From NCBI RefSeq assembly GCF_988243305.1, contig NZ_OZ547136.1: a stretch of 64,000 bases of DNA. One strand, given 5' to 3'. The notes below the pieces were generated by a model that saw nothing but the letters and a program-made list of their open reading frames with translations, was not told the origin of the DNA and ran no database searches. The position numbers and the translations under genes are program-made. Numbering within the stretch: position 1 is the stretch's first letter; each line of letters opens with the position of its first letter. This document shows, one piece after another, positions 3,713-12,872 of the stretch.

Positions 3713-5956
3713 TCAGGCACTTTCGCGAATGGGTTCGATTTCATTCAGCGTATCAATTAACGGTTGCGGCTTACCAATAAGATAACCCTGCATATAATCG
3801 ATCCCCAAAGAGAGCACCGCCTCGCGGATCTCTTCGTTTTCAACGTACTCTGCCACTACCCGCATTTTCTTCATTCGCGCCAGGTGGCAAATCGACGCCA
3901 CTATCTGATAATCCAGACTATTTGACACAATATTGCGGATAAAACTGCCGTCAATTTTAAGCAGATCGGCATTCACATTTTTAAGCCGCGCATAGCTGGC
4001 GTAGCCGGTGCCGAAATCATCAATCGCAATCTGGCAGCCTAATTCCTGAAGATGCTGCAAGGTGATTTGCGCCTGCTTAACATTGGTCAGAGCATTACTT
4101 TCGGTGACTTCAAAAATAAGTTGCCACGCTTCAATCTGATATTTAGCCAGCAGCTGACTGACTTCAACGGGAAAACGAGCCTGACATACCGAGGTTGGCG
4201 ACAGATTAATGGCAAAACGGTGAGCGGGCATCTTCGCTCTGTTTTCAGCCATAAATTGCAGCGTATGTTCAATGACCCACATGTCGATACTCGACGATAA
4301 ACCAAATTCGTGCGCGACCGGCAAGAAGCTGTCGGGGCTGATCAGTTCATCATTCTCACCTTTCATACGCAGAAGAATTTCATGGTAGACATCGCCACGC
4401 ATACCGGTAATCGGCTGGGCCATCAGGAAAAAATGGTTGTGTTCCAGCGCCTGCTGTAGCCGATTCATCATCGCGACTTTATCTTTCAATTCGCGTTGCA
4501 AATACATTGCCCCGCGACGCTGCATATTTTCCGGGGCGTTGGTCACGATGGAAAGCTCGGCGACCGTATTTAGCTCTCCCAGCAGCAGGTAGATATGATT
4601 CACTGGCGAGCGCACATAGCAGTAACTGACGCCAATCTGCGGTTGCATCGGCATTCCATCCCAAAAGAAACGAAATTGCTTGAGATGGCTATCCAGTGCG
4701 GTAATGCGCTCCTGGTGCGATTCTGTATTCAGTCGCAGCGCGAGATCGTTACCCGAAAGCTGATAAACATCTTCACCCGGTTCCAGCAAGGGTGACAGCC
4801 AGTGAGAAAGTTTTTGCTTGTATTGAATCCGTAGCATGATGCCATAGTTCTTAACCAGCATTTCCATGCCAGGGATGCGTAAATAACAAAGCGCAGACCA
4901 GGGGGCATCACGCAACGCGCGATTCAGGGCGCGAACATTTGGCAGATGAACTACCGGGTCCACATACGCAAGCCGCTGAATGCGTCTGACTACCGCTCTC
5001 TGACGGGTTGCCAGTACAGCCATATAATTGACAATAAAAGAGAATACCAGATAACTGGAGGAGGTTATGGTCAGCTGCGTGGTATAGCCAGGATAAATGG
5101 GAATGTAATTTTGATAGCTGTGGATGCTGATCATCAACACGACCGCCCAGAGCAGCGAAATCAGCTTATAACCATAGCGCATCGCTCCCCACATCATCAG
5201 GGGCAGCAATAATGACAAGGTATAGTTGGTGCTAAAAATTGTGCTTTTTTCATTTAACGGCATGCATAACAGCAGCAGTAAAGCACCTAATGCCAGTAGC
5301 CAGAGTGCGAACTCTTTTTTGGTGACTTTGACATCAACCTGCTGTTTTAATTGCGAATAATAACTACGTAAATAAAACGGATTTCGCACTACACGAATGA
5401 TGAAGTAGCACAGCGGGACACCAATCAGATTGCCCACCAGTAAGGCCTGATAATTGATTAAGGTCCCGAGGTTAAAAGGCATGACGCCGACCAGATTTTC
5501 TCTGCTCGCCAGTAATCCTACAAACGCAGCAAACTGGAAAAGTATCAGAAACAGCGTTGCAGGAAACACAATCTGCCAGAATATACGCTGGGAAATTAAA
5601 CGGGTATCACCATGTGAAACGTTGTTACGCCGGGGAGTAAAGACCCTGTAACCGCCCCAACAGAGAATGATAATGATAATAAAATTAGCCGTTAATGAGA
5701 GCGTTTCGTAAAAACCCAGCTCTGCATATTTGCGGACAAAAATCCCTAAGGCGATCCCTGGCAATGCCGCCCAGCTGAAAAACATCATCATGCTGATCAT
5801 CAGAGCCAGAGGCAGATAAAAGAGAAAAACCTCACCGGAAGAAATATGCGCGAAAGTATTAATGTGGGCGAAAATGGGCAAGATTAAAGAAGGCAGGAAC
5901 AGCGGAAGCCCCCACCATTTATCACGTATTTTTATATAAGTTGCATTCAGTTTCAT
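3713..5956 (-). CDS. pdeF: c-di-GMP phosphodiesterase PdeF (YfgF): MASE1 membrane domain, degenerate GGDEF, EAL
   Basis: 747-aa ORF with a strongly hydrophobic N-terminal half and a C-terminal EAL-type region; position and length match E. coli YfgF. Confidence 0.9.
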   Translation of the reverse strand: MKLNATYIKIRDKWWGLPLFLPSLILPIFAHINTFAHISSGEVFLFYLPLALMISMMMFFSWAALPGIALGIFVRKYAELGFYETLSLTANFIIIIILCWGGYRVFTPRRNNVSHGDTRLISQRIFWQIVFPATLFLILFQFAAFVGLLASRENLVGVMPFNLGTLINYQALLVGNLIGVPLCYFIIRVVRNPFYLRSYYSQLKQQVDVKVTKKEFALWLLALGALLLLLCMPLNEKSTIFSTNYTLSLLLPLMMWGAMRYGYKLISLLWAVVLMISIHSYQNYIPIYPGYTTQLTITSSSYLVFSFIVNYMAVLATRQRAVVRRIQRLAYVDPVVHLPNVRALNRALRDAPWSALCYLRIPGMEMLVKNYGIMLRIQYKQKLSHWLSPLLEPGEDVYQLSGNDLALRLNTESHQERITALDSHLKQFRFFWDGMPMQPQIGVSYCYVRSPVNHIYLLLGELNTVAELSIVTNAPENMQRRGAMYLQRELKDKVAMMNRLQQALEHNHFFLMAQPITGMRGDVYHEILLRMKGENDELISPDSFLPVAHEFGLSSSIDMWVIEHTLQFMAENRAKMPAHRFAINLSPTSVCQARFPVEVSQLLAKYQIEAWQLIFEVTESNALTNVKQAQITLQHLQELGCQIAIDDFGTGYASYARLKNVNADLLKIDGSFIRNIVSNSLDYQIVASICHLARMKKMRVVAEYVENEEIREAVLSLGIDYMQGYLIGKPQPLIDTLNEIEPIRESA

Positions 5957-6307
5957 AGATGCTCAGCAGAATCCCCCACATCCTGAAGGAGGTGTATTCA
6001 GACAGGCATCCCACCTGACTTCGAATGATGATTATTCATCACTATAGAGAGCATTGATTCTAAGTGTCATATGAAAGTTCCAATTGATATATATCAAACA
6101 AAATAACCCTGATTAATGAATTATTACGTTTATCATGTTAATTCATCATTATTACATCATCATTGTAAATAATTAAATTAACTTCCATAACATTAAAATA
6201 TGTATCCACTGACGCTTTTTTACATAACGAAGAATTGACCATTTTGTCCTGTTGTGCCTTAATGTAAGTACCGTCCACTGCGTGGGACATACTTCAAGGA
6301 ACCTTTT

Positions 6308-6499
6308 GTGAGTCAGGCAACCAGTATGCGAAAACGACACCGATTTAACAGTCGCATGACCCGTATCGTACTGCTCATCAGCTTTATCTTCTTCTTTGGC
6401 CGTTTTATCTACTCGTCCGTCGGTGCATGGCAGCACCATCAGAGCAAAAAAGAAGCTCAGCAATCCACACTCTCCGTCGAATCACCGGTACAACGTTAG
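6308..6499 (+). CDS. yfgG: small membrane protein YfgG
   Basis: 63-aa ORF MSQATSMRKRHRFNSRMTRIVLLISFIFFFGRF with a single hydrophobic helix; conserved position between pdeF and yfgH. Confidence 0.8.
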   Translation: MSQATSMRKRHRFNSRMTRIVLLISFIFFFGRFIYSSVGAWQHHQSKKEAQQSTLSVESPVQR

Positions 6500-6809
6500 C
6501 GGTTACCTTCTCCACTTTTACAGAACATAACGGCACCTCGCTGTCGGATGCTTTTGCTCTTTGGGATTATCAAAGCGGCAGATATTCTTTCATCTTAAAT
6601 TTTACGTCTTTGTCCTGACTGATGTTTATCCTGTTTGGCTGCGAAATAAATATAAAATTAACACATATATTTTAATGATGTATTTTTATAAATTATTTCC
6701 CACATGAATTTTAATAAATTTAATCTATTCCTTTATACGCAATACATTTACTTTCCTCTTTTGATGATCTTAAATATCTTATTTTTCGTAATGTGTATAA
6801 CAAGGAATA

Positions 6810-7921: not shown

Positions 7922-7954
7922 AAAAAACCCTCTGTAGTAACAGAGGGTTTTGTT
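7922..7954 (+). terminator. Rho-independent terminator downstream of yfgI
   Basis: Stem ccctctg(7928-7934)/cagaggg(7941-7947), 6-nt loop, followed by ttttgtt; an A-run precedes the stem, so it could act bidirectionally. Confidence 0.7.
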
Positions 7955-8210
7955 CATTCATAGTGCAGGGATCAAAATCATTCCCACTCAGCTATCAATG
8001 AGAAAATAAAATATAAATAAATCAATGCCTTGAAACAAACCACTTAGCAGATACCACGAAAAATACCATGTCTCAATAATAGAGCTGTCTACAGGCTGTT
8101 CAGACGAACAATATGGCCGCTCTACTCCTAATAGAGTCCTTAGCTCGGTCACATCACTAATTTCAACATAGATGTGAACAAAATGAGGCATCAACGCACC
8201 TATTCAGTTA

Positions 8211-9725
8211 GTGTATTTGATATCGTATGTGGCAACAAAAAATGGAGTTACAATCTTGAAAGTAAGCGAGTTATCTAGCCAAATTGGCCGACTTTACGGC
8301 TTAAACAACATCAACATAATTATGGGCCGAAACGGTGCGGGAAAAAGTCGTTTCCTTCGTGATATCGAACAAACAATCAGCCAGAACAAGCAGCAATTTT
8401 ATGTCCGGTATGTAAGTCCAGAGCGAGCAGGATCGTTCAAGCGTGATGGCACCGTCCTCACAAATATGAGCGACAACCCCGAATGGCTGAGGCACACTCG
8501 GGCAGTTAATCAGGCAAGCAACTTCAAAGCTGCATCGGCTATGCTATTTCGCGAGGCCGAGACGCTTTACTTACGTCGACTTGCCAATACTCCGGAAATT
8601 CGAACTGATCTAACGCGAAACTTTCAGACAGACCGATTAAGTAAAATTAATCAGCTTCTCACTAACATTTCGCTCGAGATGGGTAATGTCGATTATGAGT
8701 TTCGATCACTTGTAGATGGTCAGATTATTGATCCGGCCCAAATCAGTAGCGGTGAATCGGAAGCGGTTGCATTAGCCGCGGAAATCATCTATTTCTTCGA
8801 CACAATAGATCCGGAGAAATTCAACGTACTCCTCCTCGATGAGCCTGATGTACATCTGCACCCCGACCTCCAAGCTAGACTGGGCAAGCTGATAATCAGT
8901 ATGCTCGACGAATTTAGAACACACGCGAACAGTATTGCCATATGCTTATCCACCCATAGTTCCCCGCTCGTCTGTTCTCTTGCCGCCTCCCCATATGTAT
9001 CAATCGGCACGAAGAGCTTTGCAGTGAATGAAATCTCATTGATACCGGCCAGCGATGAACTTCGAAAGATTGCACCATTCTTCGGGCACCCCCTATCGCT
9101 TTCTCTTAGCGAAGACGCTGCATTAATTTTGGAAGGAGAGGACGACGAACGAGTCTGGCAACAAGCGGCCAGAACATCACAGGGTCGAATAAAAATCTTT
9201 CCCGTACTAGCAGGTAGCGTAGATCAACAGAGTCAACTTGAGGATTTTTGCGTAGACCTCCTTAGTACACTCTATGACAATCCAATCGCCTTTTCCCTTC
9301 GTGATGGCGATGGTGTAATCAACGAGTCGCTTGAACATCGCCTACCTCTTAAACGCTATCGCTTACGATGCTACGCTATCGAAAATGTTCTTTTGACTGA
9401 TTCATGCCTTGCAGTAATGAATGTTACATGGGTGGAATTTGTAGACGCAGCCAAAAAATGGGTTGAGGATAATCAAACACACTCCGACATAGCGTTGATT
9501 GCAGAACTAATGGAATCGAACGACCGATTGCGTCACAAGAAGATCAAGAAAATCCGCCAACTCGTCTGTGCTATTGTTGAGTGTAAAAAACCTTGGGAGG
9601 TAGTAGTTGGACAAGCAATCGGGGCATTGACCAGAGAAGACCTTGAAAACTCGAATATGTTGATCGATTTTCTTGGAGGAGAGATGGTCAGCGACGTCAT
9701 CTTCAGGGACGCAATAAACCCATGA
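8211..9725 (+). CDS. ABC-type ATPase (AAA_21/AAA_15-like) fused to a TOPRIM/DUF4435-like domain; OLD/PARIS/Gabija-like candidate defence nuclease
   Basis: 504-aa ORF. Walker A GRNGAGKS (8325-8348), ABC-signature-like ISSGESEAV (about 8742-8768), Walker B/D-loop VLLLDEPDVHLHPD (about 8836-8877), H-loop LSTHS. C-terminal region has ILEGEDDERVW (about 9125-9157), a DxD motif FSLRDGDGV (about 9291-9317) and YAIENVLL (about 9371-9394), consistent with an OLD-type TOPRIM/DUF4435 fold. The likely true start is the TTG at 8256, which has a GGAG Shine-Dalgarno 8 nt upstream; 8211 is an upstream in-frame GTG with no RBS. The locus is AT-rich. Confidence 0.6.
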   Translation: MYLISYVATKNGVTILKVSELSSQIGRLYGLNNINIIMGRNGAGKSRFLRDIEQTISQNKQQFYVRYVSPERAGSFKRDGTVLTNMSDNPEWLRHTRAVNQASNFKAASAMLFREAETLYLRRLANTPEIRTDLTRNFQTDRLSKINQLLTNISLEMGNVDYEFRSLVDGQIIDPAQISSGESEAVALAAEIIYFFDTIDPEKFNVLLLDEPDVHLHPDLQARLGKLIISMLDEFRTHANSIAICLSTHSSPLVCSLAASPYVSIGTKSFAVNEISLIPASDELRKIAPFFGHPLSLSLSEDAALILEGEDDERVWQQAARTSQGRIKIFPVLAGSVDQQSQLEDFCVDLLSTLYDNPIAFSLRDGDGVINESLEHRLPLKRYRLRCYAIENVLLTDSCLAVMNVTWVEFVDAAKKWVEDNQTHSDIALIAELMESNDRLRHKKIKKIRQLVCAIVECKKPWEVVVGQAIGALTREDLENSNMLIDFLGGEMVSDVIFRDAINP

Positions 9726-9740
9726 GAATGACCTGATACT

Positions 9741-10136
9741 ATGACCACGATTGATCCGCCCTCATGGTATCAGTATTTATTTTATAACCCGCCTCTCAAT
9801 ACACCAAGAGATTGCGGTAAAGTGGAGCAGCATGATTACCAGCTTTATCTGGCGATAAATGATATTGAGCATACGAAAACGAAAGCAATGTCATCTAAGA
9901 CCAATAGTATCTGCGAGCAGTTCCATAAAACGATACTGAACGAGTTTTATCAGGTGACGTTCCGCAAAAAGTTATATGATGATCTTGAAGCATTACAATC
10001 GGTTCTTGATGAATGGCGGGTTCACTATAATAATGAGCGAACCCATCAGGGAAAAATGTGCAGTGGCCGAACGCCGATGGAAACGTTACTTGATGGAAAG
10101 CACATCTGGGATGAGAAAAACTTAAGCCAGATGTAA
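9741..10136 (+). pseudogene. truncated DDE (rve/integrase-core) transposase remnant, 3' end only
   Basis: 131-aa ORF whose C-terminal ~85 aa (KTNSICEQFHKTILNEF...YNNERTHQG...GRTPME) match the C-terminal part of integrase-core DDE transposases (IS481/IS3-like), including the catalytic-E region. The N-terminal DD part is absent and the first ~50 aa look unrelated. It begins 16 bp after the ATPase stop. Confidence 0.55.
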
Positions 10137-10229
10137 TCTGACAGATACCTTTATAAATAGCCGGTAATTGTCAGATCAGGTCTGATCTTATACAACTTAA
10201 CTGTGTTATGAGCAATACTGAGGATAGAT

Positions 10230-11000
10230 ATGGAACCAGAGAAATTTGCTGAAACTGCAATAGGATTTACCAAAAGCCCTCTTGGTATCATTGCACTCTT
10301 TATTGTTCTCGTTTATGGATTTGCCTCTTTCGTCGTTGGCTTTGGTAATGGCTTATCAGAGCATATAGCTCCCCTTATTTATTTCATGGTTTTCTTTCCT
10401 GTCATTGTGTTTCTTGGCTTTCTCTGGCTTGTTGCGAAACATCATAATAAGCTTTACGGGCCGTCAGATTTCAAAGATGAAAATAATTTTTTAAGAGCGC
10501 AAATAGCTACAGCAGCATCATTGACCGCCGCCACAGCAAAACAGCCTGAAAATAGTGCAGGGGTCACTGAAAGCCAACTGCGAAAAATCGTCAACGTTGT
10601 ATCCAATGCAAAACGGCAGAGTAAGCATGAAAAATGGCGAAATCGTATTTTATGGGTGGATGATCGACCAGAAAATAATGTTTACGAAAGACAGGCATTT
10701 GAGGCACAGGGAATAGAGTTCGCTTTAGCTCTTTCAACTGACGAAGCCTTAGAATTGTTAAAAACAAATAAGTTTGCAGCTATTATTTCGGATATGGATC
10801 GCAAAGAAGGGGCGCAAGAAGGTTATGTCTTACTAGAAAGATTACGCGCAATGGGAGACAAAACTCCTTTTATGATCTATGCGTCCTCAGATCTACCAGA
10901 GCACAAGAAAATGGCGAGAGAAAGAGGTGCAATTGGCTCCACTAATCGAGCAGAAGAACTCTTTCAAATTGTCATGGGTGCGATTACCAATGGCTCATAA
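10230..11000 (+). CDS. membrane-anchored protein with C-terminal CheY-like receiver (REC)-like domain
   Basis: 256-aa ORF with SD GAGGA upstream. Two predicted TM helices (IIALFIVLVYGFASFVVGF; LIYFMVFFPVIVFLGFLWLV). The C-terminal ~120 aa follow a (beta-alpha)5 pattern with receiver-like acidic positions: ILWVDD at the end of beta1, AIISDMD at the end of beta3, FMIYASS at the end of beta4. The beta5 lysine is not obvious. Confidence 0.45.
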   Translation: MEPEKFAETAIGFTKSPLGIIALFIVLVYGFASFVVGFGNGLSEHIAPLIYFMVFFPVIVFLGFLWLVAKHHNKLYGPSDFKDENNFLRAQIATAASLTAATAKQPENSAGVTESQLRKIVNVVSNAKRQSKHEKWRNRILWVDDRPENNVYERQAFEAQGIEFALALSTDEALELLKTNKFAAIISDMDRKEGAQEGYVLLERLRAMGDKTPFMIYASSDLPEHKKMARERGAIGSTNRAEELFQIVMGAITNGS

Positions 11001-11214
11001 CAAAGCCATTAAATTCGCCCCCTACGGCTACGGTTGCCGGGCGCTCACAACGGCCAGTATCTCATTTGTCGATTTGATCGATCTCATTGTAAGCACTTCC
11101 GGCTAGACTATTTTGGAATACCGCCATTTTGTTGGTAATGGCTTTTATCTTTAGGCCATAGCCGATGTTATAGAGTTACGGCCTTAAAAATAGAAGTCAT
11201 ACACTCAATGAAAA

Positions 11215-11250
11215 ACCAATAAAAAATGCCAGTCAGCAAACTGACTGGCA
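11215..11250 (-). terminator. Rho-independent terminator downstream of guaA
   Basis: Inverted repeat tgccagtcag(11227-11236)/ctgactggca(11241-11250) with loop caaa; on the minus strand it is followed by a U-run (complement of the A-run 11211-11226). Confidence 0.7.
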
Positions 11251-11294
11251 TTAAAGTTAGTTGGAAAGGCTTAATTTACTATTTATAGCCAGTC

Positions 11295-12872
11295 CTACTC
11301 CCACTCAATGGTAGCTGGCGGCTTGCCGCTGATGTCATACACCACGCGGGAAATACCGTTCACTTCATTGATAATGCGGTTGGAAACGCGACCGAGGAAG
11401 TCATACGGCAGGTGCGCCCAGTGTGCGGTCATAAAGTCGATGGTTTCGACAGCACGCAGAGAAACAACCCAGTCATACTTACGACCATCGCCCATTACGC
11501 CAACAGAACGTACTGGCAGGAAGACGGTGAACGCCTGGCTGACTTTGTCGTACAGGTCCGCTTTACGCAGTTCTTCAATGAAGATGGCGTCAGCACGGCG
11601 CAGCAGGTCACAGTACTCTTTCTTCACTTCACCCAGAACACGAACGCCAAGGCCTGGTCCCGGGAACGGGTGACGGTACAGCATGTCGTACGGCAGGCCC
11701 AGCTCCAGACCAATCTTACGCACTTCGTCTTTGAACAGCTCTTTCAGCGGTTCAACCAGGCCCATCTTCATCTCTTTCGGCAGGCCGCCCACGTTGTGGT
11801 GAGATTTGATGACGTGTGCTTTACCGGTTGCAGAAGCAGCAGATTCGATAACGTCAGGGTAGATAGTGCCCTGCGCCAGCCACTTCACGTCTTCCAGTTT
11901 CAGCGCTTCTTCATCGAATACTTCAACGAAAACGCGCCCGATGATTTTACGTTTTGCTTCCGGATCATTTTCGCCAGCCAGCGCTGACAAGAAGCGATCT
12001 TCTGCCGGTACATGAACAATGTTCAGACCAAAGTGATCGCCAAACATATCCAGAACCTGCTCTGCTTCGTTGAGACGCAGCAGGCCGTTGTCGACGAATA
12101 CGCAAGTCAGGTTTTTACCGATAGCGCGGTGCAGCAGCATTGCAGTCACGGAGGAATCCACGCCACCAGAGAGGCCGAGGATCACTTTATCGTCGCCTAC
12201 CTGCTCGCGGATGCGAGCTACGGCGTCGTCGATAATTTTCGCTGGCGTCCACAGGGCTTCACACTGGCAGATATCACGCACAAAACGCTCCAGCATGCGC
12301 ATACCCTGGCGGGTGTGAGTCACTTCCGGATGGAACTGTACACCATAGAAGCGTTTTTCTTCGTTAGCCATAATGGCAAACGGGCAGCTTTCGGTGCTGG
12401 CTACGGTGACGAAGTCGGACGGGATAGCGGTAACTTTATCGCCGTGGCTCATCCAGACATCGAGCAGCGGTTTACCGTCTGCAGTCAGCGCATCTTCGAT
12501 ACCGCGAACCAGTGCGCTGTCGTTTACGACTTCAACCTGCGCGTAGCCAAATTCACGTTCGTTAGAGGCTTCAACGTGACCGCCCAACTGCATTGCCATG
12601 GTCTGCATGCCATAGCAAACGCCGAATACCGGTACGCCTGCTTCAAAGACATACTGCGGCGCACGCGGGCTGTTTTCTTCGGTGGTGCTTTCCGGGCCGC
12701 CGGAAAGAATAATGCCGCTTGGGTTGAAGTCACGAATTTGTGCTTCTGTCACATCCCACGCCCACAGTTCGCAGTAAACACCCAGTTCACGCACGCGGCG
12801 CGCAACCAGTTGAGTGTACTGAGAACCGAAGTCCAGAATGAGGATGCGATGCTTATGAATGTTTTCCGTCAT
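11295..12872 (-). CDS. guaA: GMP synthase (glutamine-hydrolysing)
   Basis: 525-aa ORF. N-terminus [36 protein letters not shown], class-I glutamine amidotransferase plus ATP-pyrophosphatase domain (SGGVDSSV), C-terminal PATIEWE. Confidence 0.97.

Follow-up and report, generated by a model that had tools for sequence, protein, structure and literature searches.

In the Escherichia coli contig NZ_OZ547136.1 (assembly GCF_988243305.1), a 3.3-kb islet separates yfgI from guaA within the 64,000-nucleotide stretch that we analysed, hereafter the window. The islet carries two intact genes: one encodes an ABC-ATPase fused to a TOPRIM domain (the ATPase), the other a small protein, TM-REC, in which two transmembrane (TM) helices precede a receiver domain. 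As judged from their separate occurrence and separate homology boundaries, these are unrelated single-gene modules, each mobile independently of the other, and not the two halves of one new defence system. The reading that we favour, with confidence slightly better than even, is that the islet is a composite built by site-specific accretion at an attachment (att) site in the 3' end of guaA, made of two functionally independent single-gene cargo modules with no recombinase of its own. It would thus show hotspot assembly in miniature, with integrase-less single-gene cargo stacked at a core that GIsul2 and PIME islands and prophages reuse. The sequence comparisons show the boundaries, the att cores, the separateness of the modules, the identity of the domains and the conserved catalytic motifs; defence activity, triggers and targets are proposals.

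The insert occupies positions 7991-11294 (3,304 bp). When the window is aligned with a K-12-like genome in which the site is empty, homology stops at 7990 and picks up again at 11295; in this empty site yfgI and guaA are only 92 bp apart and have one hairpin terminator in common. The surrounding gene order is that of E. coli, pdeF-yfgG-yfgH-yfgI on one side and guaA-guaB-xseA on the other. An earlier note, made from this DNA alone, had described a defence-like gene set at 7956-11220. The insert is real, and those limits began about 35 bp early on the left and fell 75 bp short on the right. The note had also classed the three open reading frames (ORFs) correctly; they are an ABC-ATPase/TOPRIM fusion, a piece of an IS481 transposase amounting to its C-terminal third, and a receiver protein with two TM helices. 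The features of the locus are as follows.

7924-7951, no strand: original bidirectional terminator hairpin of yfgI and guaA (terminator scan); core DNA, with the same hairpin in the K-12-like empty site and in Kluyvera
7978-7990, no strand: left att-like core TCATTCCCACTCA, made up of the final codons and TGA stop that guaA had before they were displaced, with no difference from the end of the gene in the empty site
7991-8255, plus strand: conserved non-coding leader of the ATPase module, 265 bp, with DNA identity of 84% in Enterobacter and 74% in Pseudomonas aeruginosa
8256-9725, plus strand: ABC-ATPase/TOPRIM fusion, 489 residues, of the OLD family and closest to merged PARIS AriA/AriB (Pfam, PADLOC, motifs)
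9726-9805, plus strand: conserved tail with which the ATPase module breaks off at the IS481 fragment (homology with loci L014 and L010 to about 9785-9799)
9813-10136, plus strand: C-terminal remnant of an IS481-family transposase, with which the TM-REC module begins on the left (NCBIfam, RefSeq pseudogene)
10230-11000, plus strand: TM-REC, 256 residues, in which an N-terminal pair of TM helices is followed by a variable linker and then by a divergent receiver (Response_reg 2.1e-7, AlphaFold2 (AF2) model, hydropathy, family alignment)
11123-11142, plus strand: terminator-like hairpin downstream of TM-REC (terminator scan)
11225-11252, no strand: island-supplied hairpin, now the guaA terminator, inside the insert and absent from the empty site (terminator scan)
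11295-11307, no strand: right att-like core CTACTCCCACTCA, the present guaA stop (TAG) and last codons

Two modules that meet at guaA

Outside the islet shared by E. coli and Klebsiella, the two genes keep apart. The ATPase lies within 7 kb of TM-REC at none of about 28 independent loci (tblastn on all fetched loci), and tblastn likewise finds no TM-REC at the other ATPase loci. Each module also reaches guaA alone in another genus: Kluyvera has the TM-REC module solo, and Enterobacter bugandensis has the ATPase module at the guaA 3' end, followed by a gene for an unrelated 302-residue protein. In fact, the edges of the two modules can be read directly from DNA homology. The first, comprising att core, leader, gene and tail, extends from 7977 to about 9800 in E. 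bugandensis (84%) and P. aeruginosa (74%); the second begins at 9811 and runs to 11309 in Kluyvera and in a relaxase-bearing metagenome contig, taking in the IS481 fragment, TM-REC and the right core. The same composite islet stands at guaA in Klebsiella pneumoniae (locus L018, 3766-6496), where TM-REC is intact and 99% identical while an IS3-family element splits the ATPase into pieces of 214 and 274 residues.

The IS481 fragment sits at the seam. Its NCBIfam match (9.3e-23) covers model positions 206-283 of 284, that is the last 80 or so, and RefSeq annotates the ORF as a pseudogene without its N-terminus. The mechanically called ORF at 9741-10136 is chimeric: its first 30 or so codons are the tail of the ATPase module and the remainder is IS481. 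The fragment is found upstream of TM-REC also in Kluyvera (L021) and at locus L022, and it is the sole specific recurrent neighbour of TM-REC among 26 loci. By this distribution, the fragment travels with TM-REC and is not debris inside an operon. Two proposals of the earlier note fall at this point. Its treatment of the three ORFs as a single set, intact or decayed, finds no support in the co-occurrence test or in the Kluyvera, Enterobacter and Klebsiella loci; and where it saw decay within that set in the transposase remnant, the fragment forms the left edge of the TM-REC module.

How widespread is the islet? Of 5,426 complete E. coli genomes, 27 have the entire islet at an identity of at least 99.5%, with both main ORFs intact in every one of the 27; K-12-type strains lack it. 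No genome among the 5,426 has half an islet, all remaining matches being to the IS481-like stretch. The genes are thus far from being a fixture of essentially all E. coli including K-12, and the view of the segment as accessory, horizontally acquired and non-housekeeping holds.

These same genomes offer the best case for the earlier note's reading of one new two-gene defence system, with a sensor/nuclease, a membrane effector and the IS fragment as a tolerated scar. The ATPase and TM-REC come together in 27 of 27 genomes and never as a half, they share a strand, with 505 bp between them, and Klebsiella has the identical arrangement. We nevertheless consider such a system very improbable. A single recent acquisition, at this level of identity, accounts for the co-occurrence in E. 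coli, and the pair is missing at the other TM-REC loci (about 28) and at every other ATPase locus. The lone modules at guaA in Enterobacter and Kluyvera, the disrupted ATPase beside a conserved TM-REC in Klebsiella and the separate boundaries at about 9800 and 9811 all speak for two modules. The pairing, seen only in E. coli and Klebsiella, arose by chance as elements accreted at a much-used attachment site; this is why it is not recognised as a system, and the earlier note was right that the combination is not a described one.

Composition adds little to this picture. The insert has a guanine-plus-cytosine (GC) content of 42.8%, against 51.3% for the window and 54.2% for guaA; a value as low is reached in just 1% or so of 3.3-kb windows. 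It had been described as more AT-rich than its flanks, which is true towards guaA; the left flank is AT-rich too (44.7% GC), so the contrast is mainly with guaA and guaB. Because core DNA left of the islet is itself AT-rich, composition alone is weak evidence. Positions 5800-6800, which are core intergenic DNA and yfgG, fall to 32-35% GC, below the islet's own value, so that a low GC content here need not point to foreign DNA.

Both proteins are essentially absent from the plasmids of PLSDB. Plasmid carriage was considered and rejected: the sole full-length match of both proteins there, NZ_CP134663.1, is a 4.9-Mb E. coli chromosome filed as a plasmid.

A reused attachment core at the end of guaA

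An imperfect direct repeat of the 3' end of guaA, with TCCCACTC inside it, bounds the islet on both sides. The window holds only two copies of this motif, the flanking cores at 7982-7989 and 11299-11306, and its reverse complement, GAGTGGGA, is the published attachment core of GIsul2 and PIME. GIsul2 integrates at this core in the guaA 3' end, integrase-dependent recombination has been demonstrated, and an integrase-less sub-unit between att sites (CR2-sul2) is mobilised (PMC9376610). PIME integrative mobilizable elements use the same attB, and their accessory regions have been described as reservoirs of immune systems (bioRxiv 10.64898/2026.01.12.698999). Like these elements and the guaA prophages, the islet has the GAGTGGGA core at the guaA 3' end between flanking repeats, duplicates the end of guaA, brings a substitute 3' end and terminator, carries immune-looking cargo and shares its site in tandem. 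The last codons of guaA are thereby replaced: at window positions 11295-11300 the stop is TAG and the final Glu codon GAG, where locus L002 (1177-1182) has TGA and GAA, and the protein stays the same.

The core is still in use. E. coli IHE3034 has a prophage of about 39.6 kb at the same guaA core (L017, 720-40455), with atcattcccactcaat at each end; this prophage carries a tyrosine integrase and an endosialidase tailspike. In three E. coli contigs from IMG/VR (L049, L050 and L052), the left end of a prophage of the IHE3034 type is joined directly to the right core of the islet, so that in some E. coli the prophage has integrated between islet and guaA. The core that the islet bears is therefore still functional as an attB, and tandem stacking of elements occurs. 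The right core also ends the TM-REC module at four other loci (L021, L022, L018 and L042).

Other observations count against accretion as we describe it. The window has no third att core between the two modules, and no left att core of the TM-REC module survives in Kluyvera. With no left or internal core at hand, the order of accretion is something we can only infer. In addition, the islet differs from GIsul2 and PIME in being just 3.3 kb long: it consists of three ORFs only, and the ORF list, RefSeq, NCBIfam and Pfam reveal no tyrosine integrase, alpA, replication or mobilisation gene. Any mobility would therefore need to be supplied in trans, as for the CR2-sul2 unit of GIsul2.

The islet could then be the decayed stump of a larger island once integrated at guaA, either PIME/GIsul2-like or an integrative and conjugative element (ICE), its genes being leftover cargo with no current role. 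The missing integrase, alpA and replication genes would fit, as would the IS481 scar and the truncated tail of the ATPase module. In P. aeruginosa, moreover, ICE transfer genes adjoin the ATPase module, which has a guaA-like core on each side. We think this unlikely as an account of the genes themselves. Both ORFs are intact in 27 of 27 E. coli genomes, and both families are under strong purifying selection with invariant catalytic motifs; decay would tell where the islet came from, not whether its genes work. Accretion of two separate cargo modules remains the reading that we prefer.

A compact ATPase/TOPRIM fusion

The ATPase starts at a TTG codon, as in RefSeq, with GGAG 8 nt upstream; the mechanically called ORF opens at 8211. 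The protein has a head of about 265 residues with a short helical insert, which Pfam assigns to AAA_15, AAA_21 and ABC_tran. Across 32 homologues the ATP-binding motifs are invariant: Walker A (GRNGAGKS), signature (SSGES), Walker B (LLLDEPD) and H-loop (THS). The head is thus, as in PARIS, an ABC ATPase of the AAA_15/AAA_21 type with these motifs intact. The TOPRIM motifs are invariant as well, both the Glu motif (ILEGEDDERVW, with EGEDD at its heart) and the DxD motif (RDGDG). Homologues 65-94% identical occur in Enterobacteriaceae, Pseudomonas and many alpha-proteobacteria.

Which known system does it resemble most? The PADLOC models that match it are PDC-M01A, AriA and AriAB, and its C-terminal 221 residues taken alone match AriB only (1.1e-5). 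A profile built from the 32 homologues finds retron Ec83 PtuA and AriA (8ux9_B, 2e-4) in the PDB, and the top structural matches are Gabija GajA and the retron Eco8 OLD nuclease. These similarities place it in a family in which anti-phage systems predominate (OLD, PARIS, Gabija, retron Eco8). The protein is an OLD-family enzyme nearest to merged PARIS, and so probably a single-gene anti-phage nuclease.

PARIS, which pairs the ABC-ATPase AriA with the DUF4435/TOPRIM protein AriB and is class 4 of the OLD family, provides the closest comparison. It is activated by the Ocr anti-restriction protein and cleaves tRNA, with the release of free AriB as an activation step, and clades with a merged, single-polypeptide ariAB have been reported (Burman et al., PMC11464382). 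PARIS and the islet ATPase alike combine an AAA_15/21-type ABC ATPase with a following TOPRIM that has Glu and DxD motifs; mobile elements carry both, and fused forms exist in PARIS. The islet protein is, however, only 489 residues long, against about 760 for AriA plus AriB, and as a fusion it cannot free AriB. Three further results tell against a plain assignment to PARIS. The match to PADLOC AriAB (PDLC02981, 2.8e-14) aligns residues 85-396 with positions 220-523 of a 694-position model, or about 44% of it; Pfam DUF4435 scores below significance (E-value 0.41); and the family profile does not detect the solved AriB. Because the protein has 489 residues and only 44% of the merged AriAB model is covered, we file it as a member of the OLD/PARIS kind and not as a proven PARIS.

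With class 1 OLD the ATPase shares a single-gene layout, an N-terminal ABC ATPase, a C-terminal TOPRIM and the lack of an obligatory partner. Toprim_Old, the sequence mark of that class, is missing among its Pfam matches, and the OLD protein of Thermus scotoductus (Ts OLD, 6p74) scores against the ATPase profile at an E-value of 0.069, over the ATPase part only. It is also shorter than P2 Old, Ts OLD, GajA and the Eco8 OLD nuclease, and it has no helicase or reverse-transcriptase partner.

We envisage the first module (7977 to about 9800) as a self-contained anti-phage sensor-effector, in which a compact OLD-family ABC-ATPase is fused to a putatively DUF4435/AriB-like TOPRIM nuclease. The ATPase head would keep the nuclease inactive until an infection cue or an ATP-dependent rearrangement activates it in cis, whereupon nucleic acid would be cut. 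The target might be tRNA, by analogy with PARIS, or DNA, by analogy with Gabija and OLD. Since the protein is a fusion, to which the published release step of PARIS is not available, it could show how such fusions switch on. It is among the smallest fused relatives of PARIS and OLD, which makes for part of the novelty of the islet, the larger part being the unstudied TM-REC family.

The settings in which the gene is found elsewhere bear on its role. In P. aeruginosa (CP075851.1, L010), the module lies between guaA-3'-like cores ATCACTCCCACTCAGC and CTCACTCCCACTCGAT, at 6709 and 8640, and is followed by a gene for a 1,341-residue HTH-nSTAND protein and Trb conjugation genes, an arrangement that suggests tandem elements at the Pseudomonas guaA site. 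In Mesorhizobium the gene stands solo among core genes. On a 46-kb viral contig (IMG/VR UViG_2883839403_000003; L057, 5291-7464), a 75% identical homologue lies directly downstream of a CI-like repressor. A place next to the prophage repressor is a classic position for moron and defence genes.

Positions at the att-proximal ends of integrative elements and beside a prophage repressor might also be expected of a gene for conflict between mobile elements, serving to exclude plasmids or competing islands or as an addiction system for the guaA element. Related SMC/ABC-TOPRIM systems do act on plasmids (cited in PMC11464382). We judge such a role quite improbable, given that the closest characterised relatives (PARIS, Gabija, retron Eco8 and P2 Old) are anti-phage and that the Mesorhizobium gene sits alone among core genes. 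Anti-phage activity is thus the function that we continue to assign, provisionally, to the ATPase.

The leader of the module could be an operator, a promoter or a set of integrase arm sites. Its conservation is strongest at 8195-8262, and parts of it can still be recognised in Mesorhizobium. Rfam gives no match, and its consensus fold of -0.86 kcal/mol does not support a structured RNA. An antisense ORF for 68 residues at 7988-8194 was considered as a hidden partner and dropped, being unconserved in Enterobacter or P. aeruginosa.

TM-REC, a receiver on a membrane anchor

TM-REC has a simple architecture. By hydropathy and the AF2 model, its TM helices span about residues 17-37 and 46-70, with a 9-residue loop between them and a basic juxtamembrane stretch after them, which would place the receiver in the cytoplasm. 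A variable linker, modelled with low confidence, leads to the receiver, which AF2 predicts as a (beta-alpha)5 fold (pLDDT about 90); its best PDB matches are canonical receivers (6ont, TM-score 0.86), and the best NCBIfam similarity is to the receiver of RcsC. A cREC_REC assignment reached only an E-value of 0.0073 and is not claimed. The acidic pair D144 and D145 and the acceptor D188 are kept. Two other residues are not: CheY T87 corresponds to Ala, and CheY K109 to a variable residue after an invariant S/C-T-N. Among 26 loci there is no cognate kinase nearby, and the rest of the protein, the two TM helices and the linker, holds no DNA-binding or enzymatic output domain. Lacking the Thr and Lys and with no kinase as neighbour, TM-REC has the fold of an ordinary response regulator and is not one.

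The family is common and very conserved across phyla, unstudied, and easily tested in E. coli. Its length is fixed at about 256 residues, and its TM segment is as well conserved as its receiver. Identity is 65-91% in gamma- and beta-proteobacteria, 88% in a Chlorobium metagenome-assembled genome (MAG) and 53-67% in Bacteroidota. The Chlorobium phaeobacteroides MAG (L026, 7001-7768), from a green sulfur bacterium, and a Bacteroidota MAG (L037), in which TM-REC lies directly downstream of rpoC, imply recent cross-phylum transfer of a gene that has no recombinase.

A clue to function comes from other proteins with the same receiver. The subtype is recognised by the motif ILWVDDRPxNN...IISDMGR.EG..EGY...TPF.IYA.S...G.QGSTN, and an exhaustive HMMER search finds it, at 50-65% identity, within larger proteins that combine it with Peptidase_C14 (caspase) and FGE-sulfatase, with a ParA-like ATPase and TIR, or with FtsZ and HEPN_RES_NTD1. 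Further proteins with this receiver look STAND-like by eye. Receivers independent of histidine kinases have been predicted in the vWA-MoxR/VMAP, iSTAND2 and TERNS3 conflict systems, as nucleotide-responsive switches (Kaur, Burroughs, Iyer and Aravind; Kaur et al. 2020, 2021; predictions only). The fusions of the TM-REC subtype draw on this same effector repertoire. Unlike the receivers of those systems, that of TM-REC sits only on an anchor of two TM helices, in a solo gene with no vWA, MoxR or STAND partner.

A second comparison is with Detocs, a phage defence system of three proteins: the kinase DtcA, the buffer receiver DtcB and the receiver-effector DtcC, some of whose effectors are TM proteins. 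In both cases a receiver is coupled to an effector, membrane effectors included. The order of TM-REC is the reverse, with the TM helices N-terminal and the receiver C-terminal, and it lacks a DtcA-like kinase as neighbour; moreover, TM-REC matches no PADLOC family at an E-value of 0.01 or better.

To explain these features, we propose that the second module (about 9811-11294, the IS481 scar and the gene) would supply a membrane-anchored receiver that works without a histidine kinase. The receiver would act as a dimerisation switch, responsive to a ligand or a phosphoryl group, driving the two TM helices to perturb the membrane, and the output might be abortive infection or growth arrest, to which we attach low confidence. 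A receiver-gated membrane effector is the mechanism that we prefer, tentatively, for TM-REC. A bolder and rather doubtful extension is that TM-REC is a widespread single-gene immune or abortive-infection module, whose kinase-independent receiver, lacking the Thr and Lys, senses a small molecule or infection signal and switches the two-helix effector, and that its subtype is a common switch in the caspase, TIR and FtsZ conflict proteins of multicellular bacteria. If so, E. coli would become a tractable minimal model for this whole class of receivers. Work on TM-REC could give a first experimental handle on kinase-independent receivers, so far only predicted in bacterial conflict systems.

Several points count against an immune role. 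The part assigned to the TM helices as a membrane effector is purely what we infer. No PADLOC model matches TM-REC, and of 30 immediate neighbours elsewhere just one has such a match; with so few defence-like neighbours and many core genes around it, as in solo insertions beside rpoC, foxA and metabolic genes such as that for an acyl-CoA ligase, guilt by association is weak. The searchable literature holds no experiment on the ATPase or on TM-REC, no mention of either protein's RefSeq accession and none of a single-gene defence system of the TM-receiver kind; the DefensePredictor literature names REC in a figure legend only. The defence-like content claimed by the earlier note is thus upheld for the ATPase, through its anti-phage family, and for TM-REC is a hypothesis only.

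Accessory signalling is a serious rival here. TM-REC may be ordinary, non-immune cargo, for example a membrane-tethered phosphate sink or adaptor for two-component or acetyl-phosphate signalling of the host. The receiver fold is genuine, with acidic pocket and acceptor Asp kept, its best NCBIfam similarity is to RcsC, and the neighbours are mostly non-defence. We rate this reading as rather unlikely on four counts: the 26 loci show no kinase or conserved partner; the Thr and Lys needed for normal phospho-switching are missing; spread over phyla at 53-91% identity argues against a fit to a host-specific pathway; and proteins of caspase, TIR and STAND-like architecture (the last by eye only) contain this receiver subtype too.

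The contexts of TM-REC are varied. One copy belongs to a satellite-like element that also encodes AlpA and a DUF927 primase, others to Vibrio integron cassette arrays rich in toxin-antitoxin cassettes; elsewhere the gene follows an att core and has a PDC-S49 candidate as neighbour, or it adjoins a relaxase-bearing element. A defence-island context was considered and is not supported by the PADLOC count above. The search for a conserved partner, by all-against-all clustering of ORFs within 5 kb at the 26 loci, ended in the same way: the only recurring family in that clustering was generic LysR regulators at varying distances. In Pseudomonas cavernicola (L008, 5553-6922), an adenosine-deaminase gene (PADLOC CARF_ADA-like, 2e-32) and a Ham1-like NTP pyrophosphatase gene lie directly upstream of TM-REC and may be a nucleotide-targeting defence pair.

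The two-helix module also leads a life of its own. It is recognised by KSPLGIIALFI...KLYGPSDF and precedes unrelated C-terminal domains in Pullulanibacillus pueri (L045, 6983-7891) and a Limnobacter MAG (L046, 6992-7603). A PD-(D/E)xK reading of the L045 domain was made by eye, with nothing from Pfam, and is not claimed. The module is present in the phage protein family phrog_26238 as well, and from these combinations it behaves as an independent, shuffled domain.

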